Origin: a virus
Lineage: Duplodnaviria; Caudoviricetes
Virus record (IMG/VR): IMGVR_UViG_3300025631_000005
Span: 9,996 to 73,995 of that record
DNA: 64,000 bases
Reading direction: 5' to 3' (one strand)
The position numbers were made by a program, and so were the translations under genes. Below, one piece after another: positions 8,748 to 54,162 of this stretch (the stretch's first letter is position 1; each line of letters begins with the position of its first letter). The notes beneath the pieces are model-generated. The model did not search any database. It was given only the letters and a program-made list of their open reading frames with translations, and was not told the DNA's origin.

Positions 8748-8764
8748 TCATAGAGGGTTGACTT

Positions 8765-38535: not shown

Positions 38536-38962
38536 CATCCCAACCACGCTCGACACCTGCCAGGCGTACATGATCGGTTTCTTCTCCTACAGGGAGAAGA
38601 TCGACGAAGCCGACAACCCATATATGTTCGGGGACGAAAGCTACTGGCAGTGGAGAAGAGGGTGGTACGCGGCCAAAAAAGAAGCGAAGCCGCCTTGGTG
38701 GAAAGATTATGAGCTGCTCGCCGTCGTCATTTTGGGGGTCTACGCGTTGACGCTGGCCGTTGTGAATATAGTCGGAGTACAGGTCGGTGCGTTGGAGATG
38801 TTACTTGTCGCCATTTATTCCGCAGCGTCAGTCATGTTCAGGCTTGCCAACAAACCAGTTCCGTCTTATATGCCGGCTCCGTTATTAAAGAGGATGGCCA
38901 ATGTGCGAAGAGAATCAGAACAACCAGAACCGGCCCGACAAGCCGAAAGACCAGCCGAGTAA
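38513..38962 (+). CDS. membrane protein with two predicted TM segments
   Basis: NPY..YWQWRRGW then two hydrophobic stretches. Confidence 0.55.
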   Translation: MGKSRPGDIPTTLDTCQAYMIGFFSYREKIDEADNPYMFGDESYWQWRRGWYAAKKEAKPPWWKDYELLAVVILGVYALTLAVVNIVGVQVGALEMLLVAIYSAASVMFRLANKPVPSYMPAPLLKRMANVRRESEQPEPARQAERPAE

Positions 38963-39629
38963 CACAGGGCTGGCGGTTCCAGGCATTCTCAGCGCTATCG
39001 CAACCGTTATTGCGGTTGTGCTCAAAATACTCGGAGAGGCTGTCTTTATCGTCTGGACCGTGTTGAAGTTCCTGTTCGACCAGGTGGCTTACATCGTGCA
39101 GCAGTATCCGAAAGAAAGTCTTGGATTCCTGCTGGGTTCGGCCCTAGTCGCCTCCGTTTGGCTGTTCGGATGGATCGGATGCAGTACCAGCGAGCCGGAG
39201 TTCGTAGAGGTTTACTACGCCGACGTTGCTAAAGTTCCGGAAGGTGGAATAATCGCTATTCGGTCCGGCCCGCTCGGCCTAAAGAAGAAGCTGGTATACC
39301 TGGCGGATGTCGGCGTGCCGTCCTTGACGGAACCGTTCGGGTCTGACGCTCAGAAGTTCGTCCAGTCTATGGTCGCCGGTCGCCGGATCTGCGTCAAAAG
39401 GAAAGCATACCAGCCTGAAGGCTCCGGTATCGTGTTTCTGCTTAACGGCGACTGTGTCCAGCAAAGGCTCGTCCGTATGGGTTATGCCTACTGTCGAGGT
39501 AAGCTGTGGCGGGACGAAGAGAAACAAGCCAAAAGCGAGAAGCTGGGTATATGGAGCGTCAGAGGATTCACGGGGCAAGAGGACGAACCGCAACCAAGTG
39601 AAAACAAGCAGCCAAGCAGCGGCATTTAG
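38901..39629 (+). CDS. membrane-anchored SNase/thermonuclease-fold protein, catalytic residues apparently lost
   Basis: EPFGSDA, LVRMGYA, AKSEKLGIW retained; DGDT, RLxGIDAPE and DxYGR replaced. Confidence 0.7.
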   Translation: MCEENQNNQNRPDKPKDQPSNTGLAVPGILSAIATVIAVVLKILGEAVFIVWTVLKFLFDQVAYIVQQYPKESLGFLLGSALVASVWLFGWIGCSTSEPEFVEVYYADVAKVPEGGIIAIRSGPLGLKKKLVYLADVGVPSLTEPFGSDAQKFVQSMVAGRRICVKRKAYQPEGSGIVFLLNGDCVQQRLVRMGYAYCRGKLWRDEEKQAKSEKLGIWSVRGFTGQEDEPQPSENKQPSSGI

Positions 39630-39666
39630 AATTGGGAAGGCGCACGCCTTCCTGTACTTTAGCTAC

Positions 39667-39758
39667 AAGCACCTGGCCAAAGCGGCGTAGTTCTTCTTTT
39701 CAAGACCTGATAGTCAGGTTTTCTGAAGAAGTACGTCGTTTTGGCCAGGTGCTTTTTT
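39667..39758 (+). other. 88-nt long hairpin followed by T6
   Basis: 15-bp perfect outer stem AAGCACCTGGCCAAA/TTTGGCCAGGTGCTT extended to ~38 pairs with G-U, loop TAG 39711-39713. Confidence 0.85.
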
Positions 39759-39792: not shown

Positions 39793-39869
39793 CCGTCATG
39801 GCGCAGCAGGCAGGAGCCTGCAAGGTCTCTGGGCGGTTTGATTCGCTGGCGCTCACAAACGCATGACGG
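39793..39869 (+). ncRNA. retron-like msr/msd ncRNA cognate to the RT (copy R0)
   Basis: Closing IR CCGTCATG/CATGACGG, unpaired G39801, hairpin GCAGGC-AGGA-GCCTGC; ends 6 nt before RT ATG. Confidence 0.65.
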
Positions 39870-39875
39870 GGTGTT

Positions 39876-40844
39876 ATGGCTGAAACCATTATCGATGTGC
39901 CGGCAGCGAATGTGCTGATACCGACGTTCCGCGGTCGTATGCCCTGCAGGATTAGGTGGAAAGAGAAAGAGCTGCCGTCCGCCAAAGTCAAAATCATTGA
40001 CTTGCCAAAACCGGACGGAGGAACCAGGCGAATCTATTCGCCGGACAGGCACCTGCGATTTCATCTTCGCTACATGGCTAGAGCGTTCAATCGGCTGTTC
40101 GAGCTTATCAAAAGCAACCAGGTGAAAGGGAGCCTGGAGCGCATCGTATTCGAAGCTGTCTGCGCTTTCGTGCGACGAGGCGACCCGGTCTCTGCGGCTT
40201 TAAGACACTCGCCGTATGTCTACACAATCCAAATAGATATCCGACGATGCTTCGATTCGATCACTCCGGATATCCTATCCGCCGGGGTGCACACGTGCCC
40301 GGTTGTCTCCAACTACGCCGGCCCTCTCAGCAGTAACAAGACCGGCTTGTTTATAGACGGCCATCTGCCGCAAGGGTACTCGACCAGCCCGATGCTTTGC
40401 AACTTCGCGCTGCTCGGAGCGGATTACTTCGCCGTCTCGGCGCTGAAAAGCAAGGAATCGAGATTCGTCTACACCAGATACGCCGACGATATTACTGTAT
40501 CGGTGAATAATAAAGATCTTGTAGACTATGCCATCGGCGCTGTTGTAGGGGCGTTGGGCATCTACGGCTTGAGCACAGCAGAAGACAAACTCAAAGTGCA
40601 GTGCGGCCGGTCGAACAGGAGACGGATACTCGGCGTATCCGTAGACGATATGGGCGTTTACCCGACAAGGGAGACGGTCCGTAGACTTCAGCGATTGCAG
40701 CGGGTCGACGCCCGTCGAGGCTATAAAAGCAGTCAAACGCTGGGCCTTGAAGCCTGGGTAAAACACATAACAGATGTCAGGGACCAGTTCCAAATGGAAC
40801 TGCAAGACAAGATTATGCGGGATCTGAGGAGAAATAATGACTAA
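39876..40844 (+). CDS. retron-type reverse transcriptase
   Basis: LPKPDGGTRRIYSP, AALRH (NAxxH-like), IDIRRCFDSI, LPQGYSTSP, YADD at 40479-40490, RILGVSV (VTG-like); 322 aa with no maturase or nuclease domain. Confidence 0.88.
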   Translation: MAETIIDVPAANVLIPTFRGRMPCRIRWKEKELPSAKVKIIDLPKPDGGTRRIYSPDRHLRFHLRYMARAFNRLFELIKSNQVKGSLERIVFEAVCAFVRRGDPVSAALRHSPYVYTIQIDIRRCFDSITPDILSAGVHTCPVVSNYAGPLSSNKTGLFIDGHLPQGYSTSPMLCNFALLGADYFAVSALKSKESRFVYTRYADDITVSVNNKDLVDYAIGAVVGALGIYGLSTAEDKLKVQCGRSNRRRILGVSVDDMGVYPTRETVRRLQRLQRVDARRGYKSSQTLGLEAWVKHITDVRDQFQMELQDKIMRDLRRNND

Positions 40845-41061
40845 AAACAATGTGAAGGTCGAGAAAATCACCCTCTCGCAAGGGCGTACCACCGTAATAA
40901 AAGTCGGCGGCCAAGAGGTCGCCATTACCCCGGTGAAGCTGAGAGGCAACCGGGCATCGCTTCGCGTCAAATGTTCAGAAGGCGTCACTGTGAGCCATCT
41001 TGACGACGATGATGAACCTTACAACGGAGAGTCTTACAACAATGATGACAACAATGGGTAA
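40837..41061 (+). CDS. CsrA-like small protein
   Basis: ITLSQGRTTVIKVGGQEVAITPVKLRGNRASLRVKCSEGVTV resembles the CsrA beta pattern; overlaps RT stop. Confidence 0.5.
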   Translation: MTKNNVKVEKITLSQGRTTVIKVGGQEVAITPVKLRGNRASLRVKCSEGVTVSHLDDDDEPYNGESYNNDDNNG

Positions 41062-41203
41062 AGGACGATTGCTCGTTTTGTCCATGAATGGAGAACGTGT
41101 CTCCATTCGCATTCTAGACATTATTAAAAAGGTTCCCAATTCGCAGAAAGCGGAGTGGAACAAGAACAAGGTCGTAGTGCAGGTTGAACGCGAGAAAGAA
41201 TGA
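41054..41203 (+). CDS. small basic protein
   Basis: In-frame ATG 41054 overlapping upstream stop. Confidence 0.4.
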   Translation: MGKGRLLVLSMNGERVSIRILDIIKKVPNSQKAEWNKNKVVVQVEREKE

Positions 41204-41239: not shown

Positions 41240-42409
41240 ATGGGGGAGTTCGGCGCTATTGAGCTTGCAAGTATATTGATGCAAGCTAAATACGGTCGCA
41301 ATGATAAGTCGCGGTTGGTTCCTTATATTGTCGGAGACCCCGGCGTCGGGAAGACCAGCACCATTGAGCAGTTGGGAAAGTCGTTCGAGGCCGTCTATGG
41401 TACTGAGGTGCCTGTGATCACGATTAACCCACACATGTACGACCCGTTCGAAGTGTGCGGGTTGCCTGCGATCGTGAATGACAGCTACAAAATCACAGCG
41501 CCGCCGTGGTTTACGGATATTCGGGACTATGACGGGCCGGCGATTCTTCTACTGGATGAGATATCATCCTTGTCGACGGCTTTGCAATCGAAGCTGTTGA
41601 GATTGCTCGCACACGGCGAGCTGAATTACAAGTTGGGTTTGCCGGCTACGACGATGGTGATTGCGGCCGGCAACCCGTCACAGACGGCGACGGATGCATT
41701 CCTGTTCGATCCGGCATTCTCAGCCCGGTTGTGCTTTATAAAATGGGATGCGCAATCCAGCTTCGATTACTGGATGAGAGGCATGATCTCTGGATGCCAG
41801 TTCGAGCCGCCGACCATTCCTGTACTGCCGGCCGACTGGAAGAAACTGCTGCCGATCTGGGGCGCCTGCATCGCGGGGTTCGTCCGAAGCCATATGGAGT
41901 TTGAATGCCATCCGAGTGAAGGCAACGAACCCTGGCCGACCAGACGGACCTGGACCTACGGTGCGGTCGCCTGCGCCGCTGTTGAAGCCTGCGGGGGCAG
42001 CAACGAAGAGATCGGTATGGTGCTGACCGGCTGCGTCGGGCAAAAGGCCGCGGGAGCGCTTATGAGCTGGAAAGAGGTGCAATCGGTCGTCGACGTGGAA
42101 GAGCTGCTGCAGGACGCTGTCCGCAGGGTACAGAATGGCAAAAAGGTCTTGTTGCCGGAAGCCGCCGTCAGACGATTGGACATCGTTTTCGCCATCGTCG
42201 CGGCTCTTCTGAGCTGCCTGTATCGCGATACGACTGATGATCGCTATAATGCTGTCTGCGCGCTGCTGACGGCGATGTGTGACGCCGGCTTTTCCGAGGC
42301 TGCGACTTACGGCGCCATTGCGCTGTTCGAGCAGCACCGTCGCAAACTGCCTGCCGACCTGCTTAAACGGTTGCAGACGGTTCACAGTTACATACCGTTC
42401 AAGTCTTAG
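41240..42409 (+). CDS. MoxR-like AAA+ ATPase
   Basis: GDPGVGKT, LLLDEI, AAGNP, DPAFSARL, PTRRTW; GGAGG RBS. Confidence 0.88.
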   Translation: MGEFGAIELASILMQAKYGRNDKSRLVPYIVGDPGVGKTSTIEQLGKSFEAVYGTEVPVITINPHMYDPFEVCGLPAIVNDSYKITAPPWFTDIRDYDGPAILLLDEISSLSTALQSKLLRLLAHGELNYKLGLPATTMVIAAGNPSQTATDAFLFDPAFSARLCFIKWDAQSSFDYWMRGMISGCQFEPPTIPVLPADWKKLLPIWGACIAGFVRSHMEFECHPSEGNEPWPTRRTWTYGAVACAAVEACGGSNEEIGMVLTGCVGQKAAGALMSWKEVQSVVDVEELLQDAVRRVQNGKKVLLPEAAVRRLDIVFAIVAALLSCLYRDTTDDRYNAVCALLTAMCDAGFSEAATYGAIALFEQHRRKLPADLLKRLQTVHSYIPFKS

Positions 42410-42423
42410 ATTATGGAGCAGTT

Positions 42424-43752
42424 ATGGAGAGTAAGGAGTACCATTTCGCAATAGCCGGAGCGAAGCAATGGCTCATACGGAAGCTGCCGGCCCTAGGCTG
42501 GTTCATTGAAACGCTTCCGTGCGTCGTCACCAAATCGTGCCCAGGCGTAGCCGCGTCAAAAAACGGGGTGGTGTATGTCCATCCGATCGTCATCGACGAG
42601 CATGTCGCCATTCTGCCTTTCCTTTTGATGAGGGAGATGGCTCAGATACTTCTGAATCACAGTAAAAGAAGGGCTTTCTCAGGCATACCGCCGACGGTAT
42701 GGACTCCGGCAGCCAGAATGGCGATCTATTGTCTGCTCGGCTCGGCTTGTATGCTACCGGCTCGTACGAAGGCGGAGCAGATCGGCCTGTTGGATCCGAG
42801 CGATTTCAATATGCCGACCGGCTGTAATGCGGAGCATTACGCCGACCTCATAATGAGCAACTCGCTGTCTTTCGACTTCGCTGGGCCCGGCGAAAACGAC
42901 AAATCCGAAGGAACGGATACTGGCGAGAAAGAAAGCGGCTCTGCAGGGAGCAGTAAAAACGCCGATGCTGAAGACGACCAAGACGGCGGGACGGCTGAAA
43001 TCGACCTGAAGGCCGGCGGCAGCGCTGAGGACGGCTTGCGACGGCCGTGGGAGACGCAAGAGGACCGGGCGCGGCCTGCGTTCTGTATGCAGCTCTCCAT
43101 CGAGGAAGCCCAACAAGCTATGCGAGGCGCGATCGGCGCCGGCTTCGACCGGCTGCTGGGCCAGTACGCCGGGAAAGTGGAGGGAGCTTCCAAGTTGCTC
43201 CAGCTGATCAAGCCCGACGTCGAGTTCGGTCGTGGGCAGACGCAGGAGTACAACTATTCGAAAATCGCGAGGCGGTCGCAGCTCGGGTACGGTTATGCGG
43301 TCGGCAGACCGAGAGCGCTCCTACCCCGTATGGACACGCGCAGCTACAAGGCGGCGATACTGATTGATACATCCGGCAGTATGTCGGAAGAGCAAGAGCT
43401 GGCAAAAGTCGCCAAGCTGGTATGGGCGATGGCGTCCTTGAGAGCTGGGCTGTTTCACGTGTTCGTCGGAGACACAGAAGTAAAGGCAAGCACTGTGCTC
43501 CGTACGGCCAAGGAAAAGCTCAAGTTCAAAGGAGGCGGCGGAACCTCTCTGGACCAGATAATCAATCAAGTGCTTCAGACGATTCCGGAACGCCCGATCC
43601 AGCTGATCATATTCACGGACGGCTGGACGCCGTGGCCAGCCCAACGACCGTCCGGCGTGTTCGCGAAAGTCGTACTGACCAAAGACCCCTCCAGTTACTA
43701 TCCGGTCCCGGACTGGATGGAGACATACAAACTGGAGGAATTCATAGCGTGA
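42424..43752 (+). CDS. vWA-domain protein with N-terminal metallopeptidase-like domain (DUF2201 type), HExxH degenerate
   Basis: IDTSGSMS, GGGGT, IFTDG; LMREMAQILLNHSKRR where HExxH is expected. Confidence 0.85.
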   Translation: MESKEYHFAIAGAKQWLIRKLPALGWFIETLPCVVTKSCPGVAASKNGVVYVHPIVIDEHVAILPFLLMREMAQILLNHSKRRAFSGIPPTVWTPAARMAIYCLLGSACMLPARTKAEQIGLLDPSDFNMPTGCNAEHYADLIMSNSLSFDFAGPGENDKSEGTDTGEKESGSAGSSKNADAEDDQDGGTAEIDLKAGGSAEDGLRRPWETQEDRARPAFCMQLSIEEAQQAMRGAIGAGFDRLLGQYAGKVEGASKLLQLIKPDVEFGRGQTQEYNYSKIARRSQLGYGYAVGRPRALLPRMDTRSYKAAILIDTSGSMSEEQELAKVAKLVWAMASLRAGLFHVFVGDTEVKASTVLRTAKEKLKFKGGGGTSLDQIINQVLQTIPERPIQLIIFTDGWTPWPAQRPSGVFAKVVLTKDPSSYYPVPDWMETYKLEEFIA

Positions 43753-43753
43753 G

Positions 43754-43801
43754 CCGTACAGCAAGCAGGCAGTCCGGTCTGCTGGTATCCTTCATGTATG
43801 G
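43754..43801 (+). ncRNA. minimal retron-like element (copy R1)
   Basis: IR CCGTACA/TGTATGG, AGC with G43761, hairpin GCAGGC-AGTCCG-GTCTGC, only ~12 nt of body. Confidence 0.5.
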
Positions 43802-43821
43802 AGTGTGACATCGGAGAATAC

Positions 43822-43968
43822 TCGACCATGCAGCGTGGCGGGCAGTCGAGCCCGCCGGTAAAGGATCGAAACTGCATTCAGTTGCAGCCTGCGCTCGGGG
43901 CGAAAGCTCCACACTGGTTTCGCTTTCGCCCCTCGCTCCGCCCAACTGAGCAGCTTGTGCATGGTTGA
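43822..43968 (+). ncRNA. retron-like msr/msd ncRNA (copy R2)
   Basis: IR TCGACCATGCA/TGCATGGTTGA, AGC with G43833, hairpin GGCGGGC-AGTCGA-GCCCGCC, 11-bp body hairpin GGGGCGAAAGC/GCTTTCGCCCC. Confidence 0.75.
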
Positions 43969-43970
43969 TG

Positions 43971-44010
43971 AGTCGGCCGGCGCTGAACCGCGCCGGCCGA
44001 CTTCTTTTTT
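43971..44010 (+). terminator. intrinsic terminator directly after R2
   Basis: 13-bp perfect stem AGTCGGCCGGCGC/GCGCCGGCCGACT + TCTTTTTT. Confidence 0.85.
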
Positions 44011-44059
44011 ATAGTGACTGAGGTTCGAATGCGGTCCAGAGATGTCTTAGGAGGCGACA

Positions 44060-45223
44060 ATGAGGTTCTATCTGAGATCCGCCAAATACTACCCGCAATT
44101 CGTTGCAGCGTTGAGCGGATATAGACAGGCCGAATCAGAAGGGCCGTACATGGCCATTATGAGGAGTTTTGTAAAAGCGGAATCTCGGGAAGAGTTCCTG
44201 AAACGCTGTGCGAATTACAATGGGCTTCGAACCAAGGTCAATAAGGTTATTGCCCATGTCTTTCCTTCTATCGTCCCGACACAGCATACGAAATTCGGGG
44301 TGATCGAGCTTCAAGATTGCTACGCAGCGCTCAGTAAGTCGGCTATAGACAAGTTCGCAAAGATGATACCGGAGCGGTATCTGATCGAATCGGCTTTGGC
44401 GAACTGCATCGACTACGTTCCAGAGCCGCTTATGGAGTGTATACATACCTGCCGACCGATACCCGATGAGGCGATCAGATCTGTAGAATCCGACGGCAAA
44501 CTCCGTGCGGAGATCAGGCAGCGCGTTCTGGAGACATTTGCTTCCGGCGGGGCGGTGCGTCTGAATTTCTCGGTTGTCGGCCGTGTTATTCCTTGGGAAG
44601 AGCTGGCTGTCGCAACAGTGCTGGCCATGAGAGATATCGACTTCGTCCCGCCCTCGCACTGGTATTTCCTCCTGTCTGATCTGCCGCCGCACTGCAGTTT
44701 CGGTTGGGCGATCGTCAAACTGTTCCCGGAGCTCAGGCTGGATTTCTCGGCGATATCGCAGATCTGCTGCTGCAATAACTTTCCGAGTATATTGCGGCGA
44801 TTGGATCTGGCCGGCTTCTACCAGGCTGCGTTTTTCATCGACCGGCGCAACTATATGGACAGCCAAGGCTCGGACTCAAGTGAGACTGTCGGACTCGCGG
44901 GAGCTGAAGACGTGATCGAGAAGGCGGCTTACTACTACGGATTGAGCTGCGCCTGCCGCCATCGGGACATAATCGTTATGGAAGCTCTGGAGCGAGGACT
45001 GATCGAAACGGCGGCCAGAGCCGCCTTCCACTATGCGGACATATTGTCAGCGAAGGCGATAGCCGCTCTGCGGGACTGCAAGGCTACAAGGCCTGTCGCC
45101 GACATGGTGGAGAAGTTGCAGTCTTGGCAGCCGCGGCGAGGGAATAACGTGCCAGCCGTCAAATTCCAGAGCCATCTGTCATCGTCAAGATCGAAGGAAA
45201 CTGTCGATGAAGCCAGTTCTTGA
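44060..45223 (+). CDS. hypothetical protein, cassette gene A1
   Basis: AGGAGG RBS; MRFYLRSAKYY, SDLPPHCSFGW, ICCCNNF, SCACR shared with 46633-47817. Confidence 0.8.
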   Translation: MRFYLRSAKYYPQFVAALSGYRQAESEGPYMAIMRSFVKAESREEFLKRCANYNGLRTKVNKVIAHVFPSIVPTQHTKFGVIELQDCYAALSKSAIDKFAKMIPERYLIESALANCIDYVPEPLMECIHTCRPIPDEAIRSVESDGKLRAEIRQRVLETFASGGAVRLNFSVVGRVIPWEELAVATVLAMRDIDFVPPSHWYFLLSDLPPHCSFGWAIVKLFPELRLDFSAISQICCCNNFPSILRRLDLAGFYQAAFFIDRRNYMDSQGSDSSETVGLAGAEDVIEKAAYYYGLSCACRHRDIIVMEALERGLIETAARAAFHYADILSAKAIAALRDCKATRPVADMVEKLQSWQPRRGNNVPAVKFQSHLSSSRSKETVDEASS

Positions 45224-46379
45224 CACGCTCTATGAGTCGCCTGGTGAGGTAAAGTTTGCGGACGCGCCGGATACGCCCCTTGTGGCCGCCTGGTTTGCGC
45301 CGAAGACTGTTGAGGATGTCGTCTACAAGAGCAGACAGCACCCATATTTCGGTATTGTTAACTATTTCAGGCTGTTGCCCGAAGAAGTCCGACTGGAGTT
45401 CATTAGGAACTACCCGACGACCTTATTGGTGACGGAGTCGTCGTTTATGACGAAAGAAGAGCTGCTGATGGCGGCCAGGCTGTCGCCTGTGACGGCTCTA
45501 CAGACTGTTCCGCACCGATTCAGTCCGGAAGAGGCTGCAGAGTTGCTTGAGATAGTGGCTAAATTCGGCAAAACAGCGCTGGTCAGAGGTACGTATTGCA
45601 ACCCGTACATAGCGGCTGTACTGCTGGGCTTGTCGCGTGTTCGGAAGAACGAAAGCCTGGCAAAACGCTTGACCGACCAGTATCCGCTGTTGGCCGCAAT
45701 AGCAGCTATCGCGGATCCGGAATGGAAGGTCGATCCGAAGTTCCCGAAAGAGGATTTTACGGAATATATATCGCATCTTGACAGGCAGCAACTCTTCGAA
45801 AGAGATGAATATCTTACCGACTGCCTTTATGCATTCCGTAACGCCGAAATCCATCGGTATACATGGTGCGAACGTCACTCTGGTTTGTACCGAAGACTGT
45901 GGGGTAAACCAAGTACGATATTCGAGCCGTTCAACATCTGGGTCGACTTGCCCAGGCTTGTGTTGGACTCCCATGATATCGGAGAGTATCTGACGGATGA
46001 CGAGTTCTATCATTGGTGTGTGCGTGTGAAATCTGTGTATGAGTCGGTGGACTGGAGAACGGACGCTTCCGTCCGTTACGACCACTTTCCGGACTACAGA
46101 CACTGCCCAAGCTCCAGTTTTCCGAGCCATACTAGCATGTTAGTCAGTTCTCCCCTTTTCCTGGTACCGCCGCAAGATCCGCAAAAGCTGAATGAGTTGT
46201 TGTCCCAGGCGGTCAACCTTATTAAGTCTGCTAGACCTGACTACATTCTATCGCAAGCGGAGTCGTACCTTATTACCAACCCCAAGCTGCTGGATATGTT
46301 ACGTCCTCTGTTGGATGAAGATGACTATGACACTATCAATACGGCGCTTGTCATCCTGCGATTAAAACGCGGCGGGTAG
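45207..46379 (+). CDS. hypothetical protein, cassette gene B1
   Basis: AAWF..VVYKSRQ.PYFG, AARLSPV, RYDHFP shared with 48017-49147. Confidence 0.8.
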   Translation: MKPVLDTLYESPGEVKFADAPDTPLVAAWFAPKTVEDVVYKSRQHPYFGIVNYFRLLPEEVRLEFIRNYPTTLLVTESSFMTKEELLMAARLSPVTALQTVPHRFSPEEAAELLEIVAKFGKTALVRGTYCNPYIAAVLLGLSRVRKNESLAKRLTDQYPLLAAIAAIADPEWKVDPKFPKEDFTEYISHLDRQQLFERDEYLTDCLYAFRNAEIHRYTWCERHSGLYRRLWGKPSTIFEPFNIWVDLPRLVLDSHDIGEYLTDDEFYHWCVRVKSVYESVDWRTDASVRYDHFPDYRHCPSSSFPSHTSMLVSSPLFLVPPQDPQKLNELLSQAVNLIKSARPDYILSQAESYLITNPKLLDMLRPLLDEDDYDTINTALVILRLKRGG

Positions 46380-46412
46380 CATCGTCGGACCGCAAAGCAA
46401 AATAATAACATC

Positions 46413-46557
46413 GACCATGCAGCGTGGCGGGCAGTCCAGCCCGCAAGGAGAGGGATGAATTCAAGGAATCAGACCCCTCGGCGACAGCAAGACTCCGGAG
46501 GGTCCTCCTCCGCTTGGACTGTCGCCTCGGGGTCTTCTCCGTATCTTGTGCATGGTC
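46413..46557 (+). ncRNA. retron-like msr/msd ncRNA (copy R3)
   Basis: IR GACCATGCA/TGCATGGTC, AGC with G46422, hairpin GCGGGC-AGTCCA-GCCCGC, long body hairpin AGACCCC..GGCGACAG/CTGTCGCC..GGGGTCT. Confidence 0.78.
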
Positions 46558-46559
46558 TA

Positions 46560-46600
46560 AGACCGGTCGGCTGGGTTATCAGCCGACCGGTCTCTTTTTC
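46560..46600 (+). terminator. intrinsic terminator directly after R3
   Basis: 14-bp perfect stem AGACCGGTCGGCTG/CAGCCGACCGGTCT + CTTTTT. Confidence 0.85.
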
Positions 46601-46632
46601 TAGCTGCTGTTGCCCGTAAAAAGGAGTCGGCT

Positions 46633-47817
46633 GTGAGATTCTACCTTAGAGCAACCAAGTACTACCAATATCTCGTTGCAGCGATTGAGGGGTATAACGG
46701 ACTCGGGATGAGCAATCAGTATGCGGACGTCATGCTGGCTTTCGTCAGAAGCAAATCTCGTAAAGAGTTCTTAGAGAGCTGCACAAAAATAGGCGGGATG
46801 CGGAGCATAGCCAACAGTATCATTTTTCATATATTCCCGTCTATAATGCCGTCTCAGTCTACGGCTCTTACAGAGACCGCGATTGTCGATTGCTACGCGG
46901 CGCTCAGCTTGTCGTCTATGGACAAGGCGGCGGAGGATGCTCCGGAGCATGAAATACTCCGCGAAGCCCTTGCAAACTGCGTGGATTGCTACACTCCGAG
47001 GACCCTAATGCCGTACCTACATGTCTGTCAACCGATCTCGGAGGATGTAATCCGTTCGGTGGAGTCGGACGCCTCGTTTCGAGCCGAGATCAAACGGCAG
47101 ATTATTGAGGCGTTCGTGTCCAACGGGGCTAAACAGTTGAATTTCGAGTTCGCCTATGACACGATTCCGGCGGAATATCTGGCTGTCGCGACGGCGATGG
47201 CGTTGAAAGAAATAGACTGGATCTGCCCGTCGCATTGGTTCTTTATTCTGAGCGACCTACCGCCGCATTGCAGCTTCGGCTGGGCGCTGACTCAACTGTA
47301 CCCGGAGCTCAAAATGAACTTTTCAGCCGTATCCCAGATATGCTGTTGCAACAACTTCCCTGCTATGGTGAAACAGCTGGATATGGCCAGTTTCTACCAG
47401 ACGCGGCCGTTTATACATCACCATCAACTGCAAGGCACAAAGATGCGGGTCATAAAAACCCGTCAGGAACGAAAGATTCCGAAGAATGTGCCGACCGATA
47501 AAGAGCTGGTTTTCAGCGGCGATATGACCGAATACAGCCACTATTACGCTTGGAGCTGCGCTTGCCGCGGGCGGAACCTGCTTGTTCTGAGAGCCTTGGA
47601 GCAGGGTATGTTCGAGACCGCCGGCAGAGCTGCTTTCCACTATGCGGATATATTGTCCAAAGAAGCGATCACCGCTTTGCGAGACTGCACGACGACCAGA
47701 CCGATCTCTGAGCTGGTGGAGAAGTTGCAGTCCTGGCAACCGCAAAGCGGGAAACAGGTGCCGGCTGTCATGGTTTACGAGAAAAAGCGTTCCGAGTCGA
47801 AAGAGCAGTCCGTATGA
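46633..47817 (+). CDS. hypothetical protein, cassette gene A2
   Basis: AAGGAG RBS, GTG start; paralog of 44060-45223. Confidence 0.8.
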   Translation: MRFYLRATKYYQYLVAAIEGYNGLGMSNQYADVMLAFVRSKSRKEFLESCTKIGGMRSIANSIIFHIFPSIMPSQSTALTETAIVDCYAALSLSSMDKAAEDAPEHEILREALANCVDCYTPRTLMPYLHVCQPISEDVIRSVESDASFRAEIKRQIIEAFVSNGAKQLNFEFAYDTIPAEYLAVATAMALKEIDWICPSHWFFILSDLPPHCSFGWALTQLYPELKMNFSAVSQICCCNNFPAMVKQLDMASFYQTRPFIHHHQLQGTKMRVIKTRQERKIPKNVPTDKELVFSGDMTEYSHYYAWSCACRGRNLLVLRALEQGMFETAGRAAFHYADILSKEAITALRDCTTTRPISELVEKLQSWQPQSGKQVPAVMVYEKKRSESKEQSV

Positions 47818-48017
47818 CAGCGTCACTTTTGGGGCAGTCGTATGAGCTGAAAGCTCATATCGAGGCGCGCGATTCGTCGAACAGCTCTCTGACAGCCGCT
47901 TGGTTCGAGCCGGCGGTCCTGGGCGACGTTGTGTACAAGAGCAGGCAAAGCCCATATTTCGGGGCCTGTTATTATTTCAGAATACTGTCCGCTGTTTCAG
48001 GCGAGAGGGATAAATAA
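47814..48017 (+). pseudogene. truncated N-terminal duplicate of gene B
   Basis: AAWFEPAVLGDVVYKSRQSPYFGACYYF matches B N-terminus, then stops at 67 aa. Confidence 0.65.
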
Positions 48018-49147
48018 TGAGCTTCAAGAGTTTGCTGACAGCCAAGTTCTATAATCTGAACGATTATATCAGAACAGACACGTCGCCGAACAGCCCTCTA
48101 ATGGCCGCCTGGTTCGAGCCGGAGACGCTGGACGACGTCGTGTACAAGAGCAGGCAGAGCCCATGTTTCGGGATTTGCTACTACTTCACAGTGCTTCCGG
48201 CCGACGTAAGAATGGAGCTCATTAGGAGCTACCCTACGACGGTACTGTCTGTACGGGCCAGGGATATGACCAGGAGCGAGCTGATGACGGCGGCAAGGCT
48301 GTCGCCTGTTTTCGCTCTTAGTACGGCGCCGTACCGCTTTCGACCGGAGGAGGCCGCCGAGCTGCTGCGATGCATTCTGAGGAGCGGGAAGGCGGTGCTG
48401 ACCTGTCGTGCGGAATCTTACCTGTTGGCCATAATGTACGGGCTCGCGTGCGCGAGAAAGAACAAGGAGATGGCGGAGAGCCTTGTCAACAGCAGTCCTG
48501 TGTTAGCTGCAGTGGTTTCTGTTGCGGACCCGGAATGGCGCATCGAGCCTGATCCTTCTGTGCGGGAATTTCGTGCTGAGTTTATCGAGTGCCTCGCCGG
48601 CTTACGGTCCTCTGCTATCCGTTCCAACAAATACTCCAAACCTGTTGGATATCTTGCGAGCGCCGATCTGCGTAAGGAAAGCCGGTATAACGCCTGGTGG
48701 GAAACACCTATTCTGGTGTTCGAGCCGTTCCATATCTGGATCGACTTCCCGTCGGTTGCCGACCCGTCGATGAAATACGATGTCAGCGGGAATATAGGCA
48801 ACAACGGATTCGTCAACACGCTGGATATACTCGACCCGCGCGTAGCGACCGGCTACAAGACGAAGTATAACTGGCGGTACGATCATTTCCCTTCCGAAAA
48901 GAGCTTTGTTTATGCCTCGTTGGCGTCGCTTCCTCCGATGGATTCGAGCCGGCTGCGCGATCTGCTTATGTGGTTACTCGACCCGTCGGACCGATCTGCG
49001 AGAAAAGCGAAGATCAAGGTTAGGCATAATAGGTTCTTCTCCGAAAGCACGAAGTTTTTGAGACTACTGCGGCCGATTATGACCAAAGACGACTACGAGA
49101 CGGTCGTTACCGCAATCACGATAGCGAAACTGGAAGGCACGGTGTGA
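48017..49147 (+). CDS. hypothetical protein, cassette gene B2
   Basis: Paralog of 45207-46379. Confidence 0.8.
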   Translation: MSFKSLLTAKFYNLNDYIRTDTSPNSPLMAAWFEPETLDDVVYKSRQSPCFGICYYFTVLPADVRMELIRSYPTTVLSVRARDMTRSELMTAARLSPVFALSTAPYRFRPEEAAELLRCILRSGKAVLTCRAESYLLAIMYGLACARKNKEMAESLVNSSPVLAAVVSVADPEWRIEPDPSVREFRAEFIECLAGLRSSAIRSNKYSKPVGYLASADLRKESRYNAWWETPILVFEPFHIWIDFPSVADPSMKYDVSGNIGNNGFVNTLDILDPRVATGYKTKYNWRYDHFPSEKSFVYASLASLPPMDSSRLRDLLMWLLDPSDRSARKAKIKVRHNRFFSESTKFLRLLRPIMTKDDYETVVTAITIAKLEGTV

Positions 49148-49154
49148 AACAAAC

Positions 49155-49255
49155 CGGGCGCTGATGTTCCGCGCCTCACCTCGCCAGGTTGTTTCGAGGC
49201 GTGCGCCTCGGCCTGGTCCGGCATCCCCACAAAGAGGGGTGCTCGTCAGCGCCCG
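49155..49255. ncRNA. structured element, second family (copy S1)
   Basis: 12-bp closing IR CGGGCGCTGATG/CGTCAGCGCCCG enclosing CCAGG..CGAGGC-GTGC-GCCTCG..CCTGG; homologous to 51420-51518. Confidence 0.6.
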
Positions 49256-49286: not shown

Positions 49287-49397
49287 ATATCGCATAGCAC
49301 GGCGGGCAGAAGCCCGCTAGACCGAGGACCGGGTTCGCTGGCACCGACCGTGCTTCGCGCACTTCGCCGCTCGGGTGCCCGTTCACGTATGCGATAT
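49287..49397 (+). ncRNA. retron-like msr/msd ncRNA (copy R4)
   Basis: Perfect 10-bp IR ATATCGCATA/TATGCGATAT, AGC with G49297, hairpin GCGGGC-AGAA-GCCCGC, body hairpin GGCACC/GGTGCC. Confidence 0.75.
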
Positions 49398-49409
49398 GCA
49401 GTCTGCAAA

Positions 49410-49437
49410 GCACAGCATGCAGTCGAGCCTGCTGTGT
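49410..49437 (+). other. degenerate msr-like hairpin right after R4
   Basis: GCACAGCATGC-AGTCGA-GCCTGCTGTGT, same AGTCGA loop as R2. Confidence 0.35.
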
Positions 49438-49508
49438 ACGTAGCCTTAGGATTGTCCATCTTTTCGCAAGAGGAAGTCGGACGGCTGGAGATAAGAAAGG
49501 ACAGAAGA

Positions 49509-50369
49509 ATGAAAGTAGCGAAGACTACCAGTTATCTTGTGACTTTCGATGACGGCAGGTGCTTTGAATTAGAGCACGAGCCTTGCAAATGCTGCATCAC
49601 CCGGTACGACTGCAACAACGACGTGACCGTTATCGGTTATTTGAGCCATGATCCGTATATGGAAAATCCGTTGGACACCACCGACGTGCTTGGAAAAATC
49701 TACGACGGCAGATGTAAGAGCTTGGATAGATGTCATTATTTGAGCGCTCTCGGATACAATGCCGACGGCGACAAAATCGGTGATGGCAACCCGTATGCGG
49801 TGCTCCTGAGCGTCTACTCCCATAGTGGGGAGGTGTGGGCCGTCGCCGGTTCGTCTGAAGAGTCAATGTTCCCGGATCCACAATGGGATGTCAGTTTCAG
49901 CGCCGGTGTTTGGGTTCCCACGGAGGAGTTGATGGAAAACATCGAGTATAACGTCTGGGCATCGCTGCTTCCTGAGAGAATAGACGTGCATTGGGCGAAC
50001 GGCGATGTCGAGCTGACAATGCCGGACGGCAAACGTCGTAAGGGGTATAAGTCGTTCGTGTCGGCGGCAAAGGCCGCTGCTCGGCGGCTCGGTATAAAGC
50101 CGGACCGAAAAATGCTCGAGGCAAAGATACGAAAGGAGTGCGTCGAGGCGGCCGGACACGCAGTCGATGTCCTCAATAAATGGCTCATGGGGGATTGCTG
50201 GGGCGTCTGCGTGGAGGCGTTCAAAGGCGAGGATTCCTTCTACGCCGACGACAGCTGGGGCTTTATTGACCATGCCGACTGCGAAAGGTTGATGAAAAGC
50301 AACGTGGAAAGCCTTCTGAATTTTCTGAAGAAGGACGGCACGATAAACAGCTACAAGAAGGTGCAGTAG
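49509..50369 (+). CDS. hypothetical protein, paralog of 53338-54162
   Basis: AAGGA before in-frame ATG 49509 (ORF-track extension to 49164 overlaps ncRNAs); IGYL, GxIYDGR, GNPYAV, GVWVP shared. Confidence 0.7.
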   Translation: MKVAKTTSYLVTFDDGRCFELEHEPCKCCITRYDCNNDVTVIGYLSHDPYMENPLDTTDVLGKIYDGRCKSLDRCHYLSALGYNADGDKIGDGNPYAVLLSVYSHSGEVWAVAGSSEESMFPDPQWDVSFSAGVWVPTEELMENIEYNVWASLLPERIDVHWANGDVELTMPDGKRRKGYKSFVSAAKAAARRLGIKPDRKMLEAKIRKECVEAAGHAVDVLNKWLMGDCWGVCVEAFKGEDSFYADDSWGFIDHADCERLMKSNVESLLNFLKKDGTINSYKKVQ

Positions 50370-50372
50370 GCG

Positions 50373-50392
50373 GTTTGAATCCGGATTCAAAA
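50373..50392. repeat. 20-bp palindrome copy 7 (G at position 1)
   Basis: Intergenic. Confidence 0.9.
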
Positions 50393-50419
50393 ACACAACG
50401 GTAAGACAGGAGCCGAAGG

Positions 50420-50908
50420 ATGTTTATCATTTCAGCTTCGCTCGAATACAAGAACAGCGAAGACTATGAGAACGCAAAAAGGCAGATTGCCGAGATTGCC
50501 GGTTGGACGATCGGCGGCGTTAAAAACGGCCAAATCGCAGACTATGTCTACGTAGATGATTGCAGTAACCGACTCATTATTGAGTATGGGACATACTGCA
50601 AAATAGGATGGTTATTCGACTCGGAGATCTGCAGTCGGGAAGGCTGGGTGCCGTTGCAGCGCGGCTCCAAAGGATATGCCGTCTGCGCGTGTACGGACTG
50701 CAACAAAGTCGTCGTTATCGTCAACGGCGAGATCAAGGAAGAATTGCCGCTGGATGACTTCTACGATCGCACCTTGCAGCCTCCACAGGACGATGAAACC
50801 GACGAATTCGCCGTCTGGTTGGAGTTCGCATTGGAGCGACGCATCCAAGATCTGCGGGAGAAACACTACCCTCTGTTGCCGAAAAAAGCAGTAATTGATG
50901 CAGACTGA
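50420..50908 (+). CDS. acidic hypothetical protein, family with 50895-51410 and 52799-53302
   Basis: LEYKNSEDYENAK / LMYPDRSDYEGVK / LKYKKQEDYENAK. Confidence 0.7.
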   Translation: MFIISASLEYKNSEDYENAKRQIAEIAGWTIGGVKNGQIADYVYVDDCSNRLIIEYGTYCKIGWLFDSEICSREGWVPLQRGSKGYAVCACTDCNKVVVIVNGEIKEELPLDDFYDRTLQPPQDDETDEFAVWLEFALERRIQDLREKHYPLLPKKAVIDAD

Positions 50909-51410
50909 TAAAGTAGTAGTTGTTGTCGCAGCCGATCTCATGTATCCTGATCGGTCTGATTACGAGGGCGTCAAAAAGCGGATCATCGACAGTGGCTTTA
51001 GCGTGCGAGATATGGACGCCGCAATAGCGACCAAAAACGCCGGTGAAAAATGCGACGCAACCGGCCTGGCGCGTGATAATTGCGTCTGGGTAAAAGACGC
51101 CAACGCAAGACTCATCGTCCCTTACGGAGAGTACCGGGGCGTCGAACATCTATTCATCCAGTCGGATTCTTCCACACCGATATGGCATAGAGCGTTCGGT
51201 TTCGTTTTCCTCGTGTGCTTCGATGATCAGAAGCAGCGGGGCGATGTCATGTTCATCACCGACGGGGGTATCGTGGAGAAGACGACCATGTACAAACTCG
51301 TCCGATCCAGTGTCGCACAGCACCCAGAGATTCTGGACGAGTTCAAAAGAGCGATGTTCGAGAAGCATTGTATTTGCCTGCCTGAGAACAGAGGATACCC
51401 AGTCGAGTAG
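50895..51410 (+). CDS. hypothetical protein, same family (start uncertain)
   Basis: Shared YxxxxDYExxK and xDGxIVE motifs. Confidence 0.65.
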   Translation: MMQTDKVVVVVAADLMYPDRSDYEGVKKRIIDSGFSVRDMDAAIATKNAGEKCDATGLARDNCVWVKDANARLIVPYGEYRGVEHLFIQSDSSTPIWHRAFGFVFLVCFDDQKQRGDVMFITDGGIVEKTTMYKLVRSSVAQHPEILDEFKRAMFEKHCICLPENRGYPVE

Positions 51411-51419
51411 GATCACCAT

Positions 51420-51518
51420 ACCAGGCGCCGGCGCGTCTAGGTGTCCAAGTGGTTCTGAGGCGTGCGCTTCGGCTTGGGCCGTCTTCCCACACCAACTGGA
51501 TGTCTGCCGGCGCCTGGT
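51420..51518. ncRNA. structured element, second family (copy S2)
   Basis: Perfect 13-bp IR ACCAGGCGCCGGC/GCCGGCGCCTGGT enclosing CCAAG..GAGGC-GTGC-GCTTC..CTTGG. Confidence 0.6.
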
Positions 51519-51648
51519 TTGTTTATGTCGAAATGAGGGGTTAGAATGGTCAGGGTATATGTTATCGAAAGTCGTCTGACGTACAAGGTTTAAGGGTACG
51601 GGCGGAGGTCGCCGCCCGTGTTCGTTTTGTCTTTAAGGAGTCCGTCGA

Positions 51649-51906
51649 ATGAAGAGACAAATGGCCGAACGGCTGAAAGATTATATCCCCATTGTGGCGA
51701 AAATGCATCGTATAAGGGCCGACGTGAAAACGATCGAGAGCGATAAAGGCGACTGCGGCGTAAAGATCGCCGTGCGTGTCGGCAAGCACAGCGCGGCTAA
51801 AGAGATATTCGATGAGGCAGCGCTTGACGTCGATCAGACGAGTCGGCTGCTGTTTGATCTCGTTGCAACTGCGGCGGCCGCTATCGAGAAGGACGACCAG
51901 CTATGA
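51649..51906 (+). CDS. small hypothetical protein, family of three
   Basis: AAGGAG RBS; GVKIAV..HSAAKEIFD shared with next two ORFs. Confidence 0.65.
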   Translation: MKRQMAERLKDYIPIVAKMHRIRADVKTIESDKGDCGVKIAVRVGKHSAAKEIFDEAALDVDQTSRLLFDLVATAAAAIEKDDQL

Positions 51907-52349
51907 GAGAAAAGACCGCGGATGACTTGGCCTTTGTCGTCAAACACGGATGTTTTCTGGCGAACGACAAACCTGAAGCGGAGGTAGTAAAGAAGGTCGA
52001 TGCTCCAAGTGAGACAGACGCATACGGCATAAGAATCACTGTCCGGGCTGATGGGTGCAGTGCCTCTGAAGAGTTCTATGAGGAGGTCGGCCCTTCTCTC
52101 GATGAGACCATCGAAACCCTGGAAAAATGGGTAAGTAAGGTCTGTGACAAGGCTTATCGTATGGCGCACAAACACCCGGACAACGAAGGCCAGAAAAGCA
52201 ACGAAGAGACGTCCGACGCGGAGGACGCCTCCGCCTGTACTGAACGTCATAAGCCGCCGGAAGACCACGGGAAGCGTACTCCAGACCCCGCTGTCTATAT
52301 CTACGTGAAAGCGAAGATAAAGTGGAAAAAAGAGTCGCAGAAGAATTAG
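51903..52349 (+). CDS. hypothetical protein, same family
   Basis: YGIRITV..CSASEEFYE. Confidence 0.65.
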   Translation: MREKTADDLAFVVKHGCFLANDKPEAEVVKKVDAPSETDAYGIRITVRADGCSASEEFYEEVGPSLDETIETLEKWVSKVCDKAYRMAHKHPDNEGQKSNEETSDAEDASACTERHKPPEDHGKRTPDPAVYIYVKAKIKWKKESQKN

Positions 52350-52741
52350 CCTGTTTCATTCCCTGCGCGGCCAAGTTCTACTATATGAATGCCGAAGCAG
52401 AGGTGATAAGAAGGAGCGCAAGAGCTGTCAGCAATTCGCGGTGTCAGCTGCTTGCGTTGCTGAAACTGGTCAGGGAGAGATTCGGCGATCCAGACTTGAA
52501 ATCGGCTGACCGCAGCAGGTTGCTGAGTATGCTGCCTGAAGTGTACGGCGTAAAAATCACTGTCTACGACACGGAGCACGGCAGCGAGCACAGCGCGTCC
52601 ACAGAGGTCTTCGACGATATCGACCTTTCAGATGAATCCAGCCTCGAAAAGGTCGACTGTTGGCTGAGAAGGACGTACTATAAAGCACTTAAAAAAGCAA
52701 ACCAGAAAAGCGACCAGAGACCCAGTCGGTCTCAGCCTTAG
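52322..52741 (+). CDS. hypothetical protein, same family
   Basis: YGVKITV..HSASTEVFD. Confidence 0.6.
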   Translation: MEKRVAEELACFIPCAAKFYYMNAEAEVIRRSARAVSNSRCQLLALLKLVRERFGDPDLKSADRSRLLSMLPEVYGVKITVYDTEHGSEHSASTEVFDDIDLSDESSLEKVDCWLRRTYYKALKKANQKSDQRPSRSQP

Positions 52742-52752
52742 TTCATCCGGCA

Positions 52753-52772
52753 TTTTGAATCCGGATTCAAAA
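52753..52772. repeat. 20-bp palindrome copy 8
   Basis: Exact; intergenic. Confidence 0.95.
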
Positions 52773-52798
52773 CCCGACAACAAGGAGACGAACGCAGC

Positions 52799-53302
52799 AT
52801 GAGCCAGATATTCATTCTTGAGGGCTTTTTGAAGTATAAAAAGCAAGAGGACTACGAAAACGCCAAGAAGACGCTGATCGACGGCGGTTGGCCGGTACGG
52901 GTCGTGGATGCCCCTGCAGAGGGGGGTAAAGACGACGGCGACTATATCCTGGTCAATGACACCAATAGGGAGATCCGCATACCCTATTCTGGTTATAGAA
53001 ACCTCGGCCGGCTGCTCAGCCCGACCCTTTCCAGTATGATGGGCTGCAAGCCGCTTCAACACGGGTCCGAAGGATTCGTATTCTTTGCCAGTTTTGATGG
53101 TTGCACAGATGGCGGTATCATCGTGGACGGCGAAATCGTGGAAGAGGTCGATCTGGTCGACTTAGCTACAACCGAAGGAAAGGGTCCGCCGGAGATAAAG
53201 GATGACAACTACGACGACTACTTTGATTGGGAAAATGAAACACTGGAGTGGTACAAGCAGAGGGTTTATGACCGATATGTGCGTGACGAGTACCTTCGAT
53301 AG
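52799..53302 (+). CDS. acidic hypothetical protein, family with 50420-50908
   Basis: AAGGAG RBS; shared motifs. Confidence 0.7.
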   Translation: MSQIFILEGFLKYKKQEDYENAKKTLIDGGWPVRVVDAPAEGGKDDGDYILVNDTNREIRIPYSGYRNLGRLLSPTLSSMMGCKPLQHGSEGFVFFASFDGCTDGGIIVDGEIVEEVDLVDLATTEGKGPPEIKDDNYDDYFDWENETLEWYKQRVYDRYVRDEYLR

Positions 53303-53337
53303 CGTCCCTGCCACAACTCTACTGAAAGGAGAGATTT

Positions 53338-54162
53338 ATGTTGGAACCGAATGAAATCGAGCCCGTAGACCAGGAACCTGAGACAGGCAATGAGATTGAG
53401 AAGCGTCTGACCCGCACCGGCGGGGTGGAAAGGGTCCTATCTCTGTCTCCGATAACGGAGATCAGAGCGTATTGCGGGAACAGCTCGAAGATATCCATTG
53501 GCTACTTGGCTGAATACTATCTAAAAGACCCGACCGATTGCTTAGATCTCGGACATATCTACGAAGGGCGCGATTCTTCTCCGACGCGGGAGTTGTACCT
53601 TGCCGCCGCCGGGCGGCTGACCGGCCAAGGCCGAGTCGGAGGCAACCCGTACGCCGTGTTCCTGGATTGGGTCCCCAGTATCCCCGGCTGGGAAGTGGCT
53701 GGAACCCAGGAGCCGGCCCGGCATACCGGCGAAGACGACCACAAACAGATCGGCGTCTGGGTGCCGTCGGAACGGCAGATCCTCCAGATTATGTCGCTGC
53801 TGTTCAACATGACGGGTATTCCGATAATGAAGCGCCTGTCGGACGATAAATACATCGCCGTCAAGGGTAAACGATGGCTCGGAGAGTACTCGACGATCCA
53901 TGAAGCCGTCAAAGAGTTCGTCAGGCCTCCTCGCTCCAAGCGCGACGTCGAGCTGCGCACGGCCGCCATACCGCTGCTGGCTATGCGTGTCGCTGAAGGG
54001 GTGGTGGCTGCCCTTCGTAAAAATGCTTTCTTGGCTGTGGCCGACTTGTTCGAACTGGAGAGCAGATACCCCATGCTGACGCTCACGAAGCCGTGCTTGG
54101 GCAAGGAGCAGGCCGAGGTAGCCATCGATGACCTGATGTGGCAGACGCTGGTCTTCGCATAA
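53338..54162 (+). CDS. hypothetical protein, paralog of 49509-50369
   Basis: AAGGAG RBS; shared motifs. Confidence 0.7.
   Translation: MLEPNEIEPVDQEPETGNEIEKRLTRTGGVERVLSLSPITEIRAYCGNSSKISIGYLAEYYLKDPTDCLDLGHIYEGRDSSPTRELYLAAAGRLTGQGRVGGNPYAVFLDWVPSIPGWEVAGTQEPARHTGEDDHKQIGVWVPSERQILQIMSLLFNMTGIPIMKRLSDDKYIAVKGKRWLGEYSTIHEAVKEFVRPPRSKRDVELRTAAIPLLAMRVAEGVVAALRKNAFLAVADLFELESRYPMLTLTKPCLGKEQAEVAIDDLMWQTLVFA

Follow-up and report, generated by a model that had tools for sequence, protein, structure and literature searches.

Retrons are bacterial anti-phage systems in which one reverse transcriptase (RT) is served by one adjacent template and whose product is a branched, 2'-5'-linked RNA-DNA molecule. 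They combine an msr-msd noncoding RNA (ncRNA) with an RT and an effector, and 13 types have been classified (Mestre et al. 2020, PMC7736814). The defining anatomy of the msr-msd RNA consists of a pair of inverted repeats, a1 and a2, that close the ncRNA, and a G directly 3' of a1 (PMC7736814). The hallmarks of the RT are the motifs NAxxH and VTG, whose most conserved residues are the H and the G, respectively (PMC7736814). Neither AAA nor vWA partners are mentioned in that classification (PMC7736814). In Retron-Vpa2, a type VI retron, the template and the effector coding sequence are carried on one transcript, a hybrid RNA (hyRNA), and the multicopy single-stranded DNA (msDNA) derepresses translation, and a type VI template RNA was shown to be capable of controlling a downstream gene in cis (bioRxiv 10.1101/2025.10.22.683967). 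The locus described here comes from a large uncultured phage represented by a 73,995-bp IMG/VR virus record (IMGVR_UViG_3300025631_000005). The stretch that was analysed, referred to as the window, spans 64,000 nucleotides (nt) and corresponds to bases 9996-73995 of that record; coordinates below are those of the window. At 43822-49147, a unit consisting of an ncRNA, an intrinsic terminator, gene A, and gene B, in that order, is present twice. This region is an ancient tandem duplication in an accessory, paralog-rich part of the phage genome. We read it, with a probability of about one half, as the old tandem duplication of a unit in which a stand-alone gene for a retron template is joined by two coupled orphan genes, located inside a phage multi-template retron-like locus whose RT would act in trans.

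The evidence that carries this reading is an RNA core found at four sites, designated R1 to R4, of which R2 and R3 are the ncRNAs of the duplicated unit. R2 begins with the arm a1 (TCGACCATGCA), followed by G43833, CGTG, the hairpin GCGGGC-AGTCGA-GCCCGC, a long imperfect msd-like hairpin, and the arm a2 (TGCATGGTTGA). The same order recurs in the other elements. R1 to R4 have closing stems of 8, 11, 9, and 10 bp, and the 5' arm is followed by a G, 4 nt, and a hairpin of the form GCRGGC-AG..-GCCYGC. The pattern GCRGGCAG-N1-4-GCCYGC was found four times on the + strand of the 74-kb record, and neither on the reverse strand nor in the control (0 each). All four sites are intergenic and lie within 10 kb. 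At each of them the complement of the 5' arm is present 77-147 nt downstream, with a G just before it. A stem of at least 8 bp in that register occurs at about 8% of random positions of the record, so that its presence at four of four sites corresponds to a probability of about 4e-5. Three different a1/a2 sequences are used among the four elements, and complementarity is kept in each. A small covariance model (CM) of the core scores 40-43.5 bits on the four R sites and detects two weak intergenic copies, at 43753-43787 and 49402-49437, with 15-17 bits. No Rfam family matches any R element. IMG/VR scans for the msr-core motif gave 39 single matches, none of them with an RT or a convincing closing stem, and these were judged to be chance matches. 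It is this anatomy, together with the retron-type RT, that leads us to read R2 and R3 as members of a set of at least four templates that share one RT.

Assignment of the RT to the retron clade is based on profiles and structures. The best PADLOC matches of the RT are the retron models RT_III-A (9e-24) and RT_II-A (4e-23). Likewise, its ten best solved-structure matches are all retron RTs (including Kva2, Ec83, Ec86, and Ec78), and they rank ahead of a group II intron RT. The coordinates of the RT, the RNA elements, and the genes around them are collected in Table 1.

Table 1. Positions of the RT, the R elements, their terminators, and the neighbouring and duplicated genes in the window
Feature	Coordinates	Strand	Description
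R1, 77-nt ncRNA of R class	39793..39869	+	directly upstream of RT; a2 ends 6 nt before RT start codon
Reverse transcriptase, retron type	39876..40844	+	only RVT_1 match in 74-kb record
MoxR-type AAA+ ATPase	41240..42409	+	precedes A/B; also in sister phage
DUF2201/VWA metallopeptidase-like protein	42424..43752	+	precedes A/B; also in sister phage
R2, retron-type ncRNA	43822..43968	+	minimum free energy -73.2, z -5.0; 11-bp closing stem; CM 41 bits
Intrinsic terminator after R2	43970..44010 (hairpin 43970-44003)	+	14-bp stem, 11 GC pairs, T-tract
Gene A1	44060..45223	+	387 aa, soluble, predicted all-alpha, 12 Cys, no known family
Gene B1	45207..46379	+	390 aa, N-terminal ~150 aa modelled as helical repeat, no known family
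R3, second ncRNA copy	46411..46557	+	z -3.9; 9-bp closing stem; CM 43.5 bits
Intrinsic terminator after R3	46560..46599 (hairpin 46560-46593)	+	15-bp stem, T-tract
Gene A2	46633..47817	+	394 aa, GTG start, 49% identical to A1
67-aa open reading frame, B2 5'-end tandem partial duplicate (209 nt)	47814..48017	+	59% amino acid identity to B2 N-terminus
Gene B2	48017..49147	+	376 aa, 36% identical to B1
R4, fourth ncRNA of R class	49287..49397	+	perfect 10-bp a1/a2 stem; closes second cassette

The sequence-only reading of this DNA had reported a unit repeating with a period of ~2.6 kb, and the repeat is real. Direct repeats are spaced by 2573-2610 nt across the ncRNA and gene A and by 2798-2819 nt across gene B. 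The jump in the period from ~2.6 to 2.8 kb arises because the 5' end of B2 carries a tandem partial duplication of 209 nt. The resulting 67-aa open reading frame (ORF) is coupled to A2 by ATGA and to B2 by TAATG. The A and B proteins had been described as paralogous but diverged, and they are: A1 and A2 are 49% identical (E 6e-146), and B1 and B2 are 36% identical (E 4e-78). Synonymous sites between A1/A2 and B1/B2 are saturated (proportion of differing sites, pS, 0.67; synonymous divergence, dS, about 1.7), and the ratio of nonsynonymous to synonymous divergence (dN/dS) amounts to 0.24 (A) and 0.36 (B). These values indicate that A and B are old, real genes under purifying selection. The overlap of 17 nt between A1 and B1 suggests translational coupling.

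The two RNA copies are very unevenly conserved. The same reading had stated that the first ~30 nt of R2 and R3 are nearly identical, that both have the same 3' end, and that their central bodies cannot be aligned. All three statements were borne out. At the 5' end, 33 of 34 nt are identical and the sole mismatch is one loop base; at the 3' end, the last 12 nt are identical and both elements end in CTTGTGCATGGT. A 22-nt 5' motif common to R2 and R3 has a chance expectation of 0.00 in the window. The 85-nt bodies are unalignable when compared with shuffles (global p=0.16, local p=0.6). The overall lengths are nearly equal (147 nt vs 145-147 nt), and both elements fold better than shuffled sequences (z -5.0 and -3.9). 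A terminator begins 2-3 nt past each element. The two terminators have the same place and shape, and their sequences are unrelated. Since they stand directly after a2, R2 and R3 would be released as discrete RNAs.

Was the msd-like body replaced, as had been proposed? A replacement is not demonstrated, because saturated synonymous sites mean that divergence in place could also have erased the similarity. With a pS of 0.67, a body that is neutral or constrained only in its shape would be unalignable after divergence in place. The terminators illustrate this outcome, since their similarity is gone while their place and shape are kept; a replacement of the body is thus not required. It is instead the near-identity of the 5' ends (33 of 34 bases) and the identity of a2 that call for an explanation. 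The identity of the hairpin and of the G context in R2 and R3 can be attributed to recognition by the RT.

The duplication sits directly downstream of a phage retron-like locus that comprises R1, the RT, two small ORFs, the MoxR ATPase, and the VWA/DUF2201 protein. Each copy consists of a stand-alone gene for a retron-type template RNA, ending at its own strong terminator, and of translationally coupled genes A and B. In the mechanism that we propose, the single RT would recognise the msr core of R1 to R4, that is, the a1/a2 stem, the priming G, the 4 nt, and the hairpin GCRGGC-AG..-GCCYGC, and would act in trans to turn R2 and R3 into two distinct small hairpin DNAs, each roughly 85-90 nt long. 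Selection would then preserve the handle for the RT (33 of 34 nt) together with the hairpin shape, but not the sequence of the body. Genes A and B were copied along with the RNA, and they probably have no need of it as a cognate partner. Synthesis of msDNA from R1 to R4, its occurrence in trans, and any role of the DNAs are inferred from anatomy.

Several observations weigh against this interpretation. The best NCBIfam match of the RT, retron_St85_RT (2.4e-27), reaches 96 bits and thus falls below the 235-bit cut-off. The RT has YADD, but its other signatures are variant: AALRH replaces NAxxH and ILG replaces VTG, with the H and the G kept, whereas the consensus of the six closest RT relatives has NAxxH and ITG. 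Only R1 is contiguous with the RT as an msr-msd should be. R2 and R3 begin 3.0 and 5.6 kb past the RT stop codon, or about 4 and 6.5 kb when measured from the RT start, behind other genes and with their own terminators. Recognition by the RT alone does not explain why the a1/a2 arms of R2 and R3 are identical, since those of R1 and R4 have other sequences; the identity might reflect gene conversion or a further binder shared by the two cassettes. Near-identical copies of the phage, matching at almost every base, were found on about 15 contigs from several metagenomes, and this near-identity makes a covariation test of the R-element fold impossible. Finally, the record, which IMG/VR classes as linear, has a CheckV completeness of about 51%, and further RTs or RNAs could exist.

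The arms are also a starting point for an alternative in which each msDNA or ncRNA variant works specifically with the A/B pair that follows it, for example as a scaffold, antitoxin, or guide, such that the duplication produced two specificities served by one RT. We consider this rather unlikely. In its favour, the duplication took in the RNA, A, and B as a single block, no part of which has been lost over a long time; the arms are the same in R2 and R3 and different in R1 and R4, as if read by something common to the cassettes; and A and B are translationally coupled in both this phage and a sister phage. However, a strong terminator stands between each RNA and its A gene, R1 and R4 are not succeeded by A and B, and two cassettes give no statistical power. 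A further point against it comes from the sister phage, which was recovered as a 4.2-kb contig (L016, run SRR28530381). It encodes homologs of MoxR (59% identical), VWA/DUF2201 (43%), A (P0017; 37%), and B (34%; cut off at the contig end) in the same gene order as in the window and with the same 17-nt A/B overlap. Its spacer between VWA and A is 81 nt long and contains a terminator hairpin alone, without an ncRNA, whereas the corresponding spacer in the window is 307 nt long and contains R2. On a further contig of that run, 1.45 kb long, lies an RT with 38% identity.

The arrangement in the sister phage indicates that A and B belong to the RT-MoxR-VWA neighbourhood and can dispense with an upstream RNA, as seen in one relative on one 4.2-kb contig. 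The earlier proposal had named the general occurrence of A/B homologs without the ncRNA or RT as evidence that would speak against it; such an occurrence was found in part, in that the sister contig lacks an ncRNA before A, with the scope just given. No support was found for the proposed co-evolution of each ncRNA with a dedicated A/B pair in an effector module. Besides the arrangement in the sister phage, R1 stands before the RT and R4 before an unrelated gene (311 aa, 49434-50369), so that RNAs of this class are not specific to A/B. On the other hand, the descriptions of the elements as sharing an RT and as lying at cassette boundaries were fair ones, because R2 and R3 have their core in common with R1 and R4 beside the sole RT in the record. 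P0017 is more distant from A1 and A2 than these are from one another, which places the duplication later than the split of the two phages.

What A and B do cannot be read from similarity. Neither has a family match in Pfam, PADLOC, NCBIfam, or PHROGs. In a word-indexed search of 5.8 billion proteins, each retrieved itself and its own paralog only. A full HMMER profile search of 1.84 billion representatives added one further relative, P0017, 37% identical to A, and scans of IMG/VR and metagenomes with the A alignment found nothing. Both proteins are predicted to be soluble and alpha-helical, and the A proteins are rich in cysteine (12-13 Cys). AlphaFold2 models are poor (predicted local distance difference test, pLDDT, 41 and 46), with A modelled as all-alpha and B with a helical-repeat N-terminal part and no resolved fold beyond it. 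A profile search of the PDB with A and B gave no match, and Foldseek comparison of the models with the PDB gave nothing at E<=0.001. The best VIA-align Z, 7.6, was obtained on helical-repeat proteins and is within noise for repeats, and ESM Atlas scores were all <0.85. No hint of nucleic-acid binding in A or B emerged from family, fold, or language-model searches, which is a further point against a cognate RNA-protein pairing. The motifs CCCNNF (A1 residues 236-241) and SCACR (A1 296-300), which had been noted from the sequence, are present in both A copies. P0017 has ICWNNL and SVLCR in their place, and because the Cys motifs are not kept there, an essential metal site is unlikely.

A different possibility is that the R elements are cis- or trans-acting regulatory RNAs independent of reverse transcription, serving as an attenuator, as antitermination signals of a nut/put-like kind, as processing signals, or as stable 3' ends that divide a + strand operon. 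Every R element lies in an intergenic gap at an operon boundary, and R2 and R3 lie directly before strong terminators. A small conserved hairpin in front of terminators is reminiscent of boxB-type sites. The intervals from the R2 and R3 terminators to the A genes yielded no sigma-70-like promoter, so that A and B are probably expressed via read-through, and the ribosome-binding sites of the A genes lie 40-50 nt beyond the terminators, outside the RNA fold. A second class of structured elements with T-tracts, at 49156-49254 and 51421-51518, marks other boundaries. Nevertheless, we regard an exclusively regulatory function as quite improbable. The a1/a2 stem, the G in fixed register, and the hairpin 5 nt on make up a retron signature that occurs four times beside a retron-type RT; R1 is in the canonical place before the RT; and no alternative pairing between an R body and its terminator was found. 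The two functions are also compatible, as the type VI retron hyRNA does both (bioRxiv 10.1101/2025.10.22.683967).

The second class of elements has closing stems of 9 and 13 bp and z scores of -4.5 and -4.25. Their inner hairpins, at 49184-49227 and 51445-51488, are 80% identical, and the elements bound the next paralog cassettes. The two weak matches of the covariance model differ in quality. The first belongs to a degenerate fifth unit at 43753-43803, directly past the VWA stop codon, which reads CCGTACA, G, CAA, the hairpin GCAGGC-AGTCCG-GTCTGC, 12 nt, and TGTATGG. It folds as a 50-nt msr-only mini-unit with a 7-bp closing stem, scores 15 bits, and has a folding energy no better than that of shuffles. 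The second, at 49402-49437 directly after a2 of R4, is a look-alike of the msr core that scores 17 bits; a competing 7-bp hairpin, CACAGCA/TGCTGTG, fits the sequence better, and no closing arms were found for it.

These degenerate msr-like copies (43753-43787 and 49402-49437) could also be taken as traces of recombination or retro-mobility. In such a scenario, the R elements would be attC-like sites that promote duplication and shuffling of cassettes. They do have conserved inverted ends and a variable centre, they lie at cassette boundaries, with the first A-B pair placed between R2 and R3 and the second between R3 and R4, and the region contains five paralog families. Yet this scenario is very hard to credit, because no recombinase was found in the cassette neighbourhood, the boundaries of the further paralog cassettes downstream lack R elements, and a single unequal crossover suffices for one duplication without a dedicated site. 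Furthermore, the number and order of cassettes at R sites have so far been invariant across the 15 near-identical contigs.

The five paralog families occupy 43.8-54.2 kb of the window (A; B; C311/g274; g162/g171/g167; g85/g148/g139). Tandem duplication is therefore common there, and the A/B cassette is one instance of it. The downstream members, at 49434-54162, are proteins of 311 and 274 aa (40% identity over 117 aa), proteins of 162, 171, and 167 aa (27-34% identity), and proteins of 85, 148, and 139 aa with weak similarity; none of these families has a known family match. The record as a whole has nearly all of its long ORFs on the + strand and encodes several phage hallmarks, namely a helicase, a DnaB-like helicase, a family-A DNA polymerase (PolA), a large terminase (TerL), and a DNA ligase. 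No tRNAs were found in it. Directly upstream of R1 and the RT, at 38901-39629, lies a gene resembling staphylococcal nuclease (SNase-like, E 2e-6), which ends in a long terminator hairpin at 39665-39755; a weak Rfam miRNA match at that hairpin is spurious.

Two small ORFs, of 74 and 53 aa, follow the RT at 40837-41203, and the larger one overlaps the stop codon of the RT. Its homolog, 35% identical, is similarly placed after the RT on the 1.45-kb contig of the sister phage (L014, 1220-1414). The 74-aa ORF is likely a conserved small partner of the RT. Neither small ORF has a Pfam match. A CsrA-like appearance of the small ORFs had no Pfam support and was dropped.

A more distant phage-like contig (L012) encodes an RT that is 34% identical, bpMoxR, and a 456-aa gene. 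Its spacer is heavily structured (z about -6) and contains at least two tandem units of 124-128 nt that are closed by stems, have a G after the 5' arm, and combine a common core hairpin with different terminal hairpins. Three copies of the core hairpin (CCGG..ATCYGCCGC..GCGGG..CCGGG) lie at 8557-9335 of this contig, and the units are located at 8988-9115 and about 9121-9244. Among the 80 bacterial RT loci nearest to that of the window, a MoxR gene was present at three, and at one of the three a tandem 103-nt repeat precedes the RT. At this locus, in a bacterial metagenome-assembled genome with an RT and a MoxR homolog (L062, 2436-2667), the 103-nt unit is repeated in tandem with 83% identity at a spacing of 129 nt, ~400 nt upstream of the RT, and may be a two-unit ncRNA array. 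A retron-type RT beside a MoxR ATPase and a VWA/zincin-like protein, accompanied by several RNA units with a common core, is a pattern seen in L012 and in part in L062, L067, and L083. On the MoxR side, a scan of IMG/VR yielded no match, and the MoxR alignment run against metagenomes retrieved 13 distant MoxR(-VWA) loci, none with RT, A, or B. MoxR-VWA pairs without any RT are present in many phage contigs.

The interest of the locus lies mainly in the phage-borne multi-template arrangement rather than in A and B. The phage has retained a retron-type RT along with several scattered, terminator-bounded templates whose only common part is the one that the RT is expected to read, and the whole block of template plus genes has been duplicated and maintained. 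If the RT acts in trans, the locus would be a natural multi-template retron, relevant both to retron biology and to multiplexed retron editing tools; it would also mean that a phage uses reverse-transcribed DNA for its own ends. A bolder version of this thought, which we hold to be speculative and unlikely, is that the phage retron RT is a small-DNA factory with interchangeable templates that are transcribed separately, where each cassette would combine its own A and B proteins with a distinct hairpin DNA and be diversified by duplication and msd change under retention of the RT handle, for example to provide decoys or sensors against host defences. One caution in this respect is that proximity alone does not establish the neighbouring orphan genes as effectors.

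How does the locus compare with known systems? It resembles bacterial retrons in that the RT falls into the retron clade by profile and solved-structure matches, and in that the R RNAs have an a1/a2 stem, a G after a1, an msr hairpin, and a long msd-like hairpin, with R1 upstream of the RT. Unlike bacterial retrons, the system is borne by a phage, and its one RT is accompanied by four (perhaps five) ncRNAs, three of them at a distance of 4-9.5 kb. Each of R2 and R3 forms a gene by itself that ends at its own terminator, the RT deviates from the retron signatures (AALRH and ILG), and the neighbours are MoxR-VWA and the orphan genes A and B. As in type VI retrons, a template RNA is located directly upstream of a protein gene; unlike in those retrons, a terminator with a stem of 14-15 bp separates the RNA from gene A here, and the ribosome-binding site of A is outside the RNA fold rather than sequestered in it. 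The presence of a phage RT near diverged paralogous genes is also reminiscent of diversity-generating retroelements (DGRs). This reading was rejected, as a blastn-short comparison of R1 to R4 with the 74-kb record, which is about half a genome, returned the elements themselves and the shared ends of R2 and R3 only, with no pair of template repeat and variable repeat. The RT also fits retron models better than group II or other models, and the differences between A1 and A2 and between B1 and B2 are spread over their full length, with no single variable region. In the window, the R units are dispersed with A/B gene pairs between them, and it is the block of RNA plus genes that has been duplicated.

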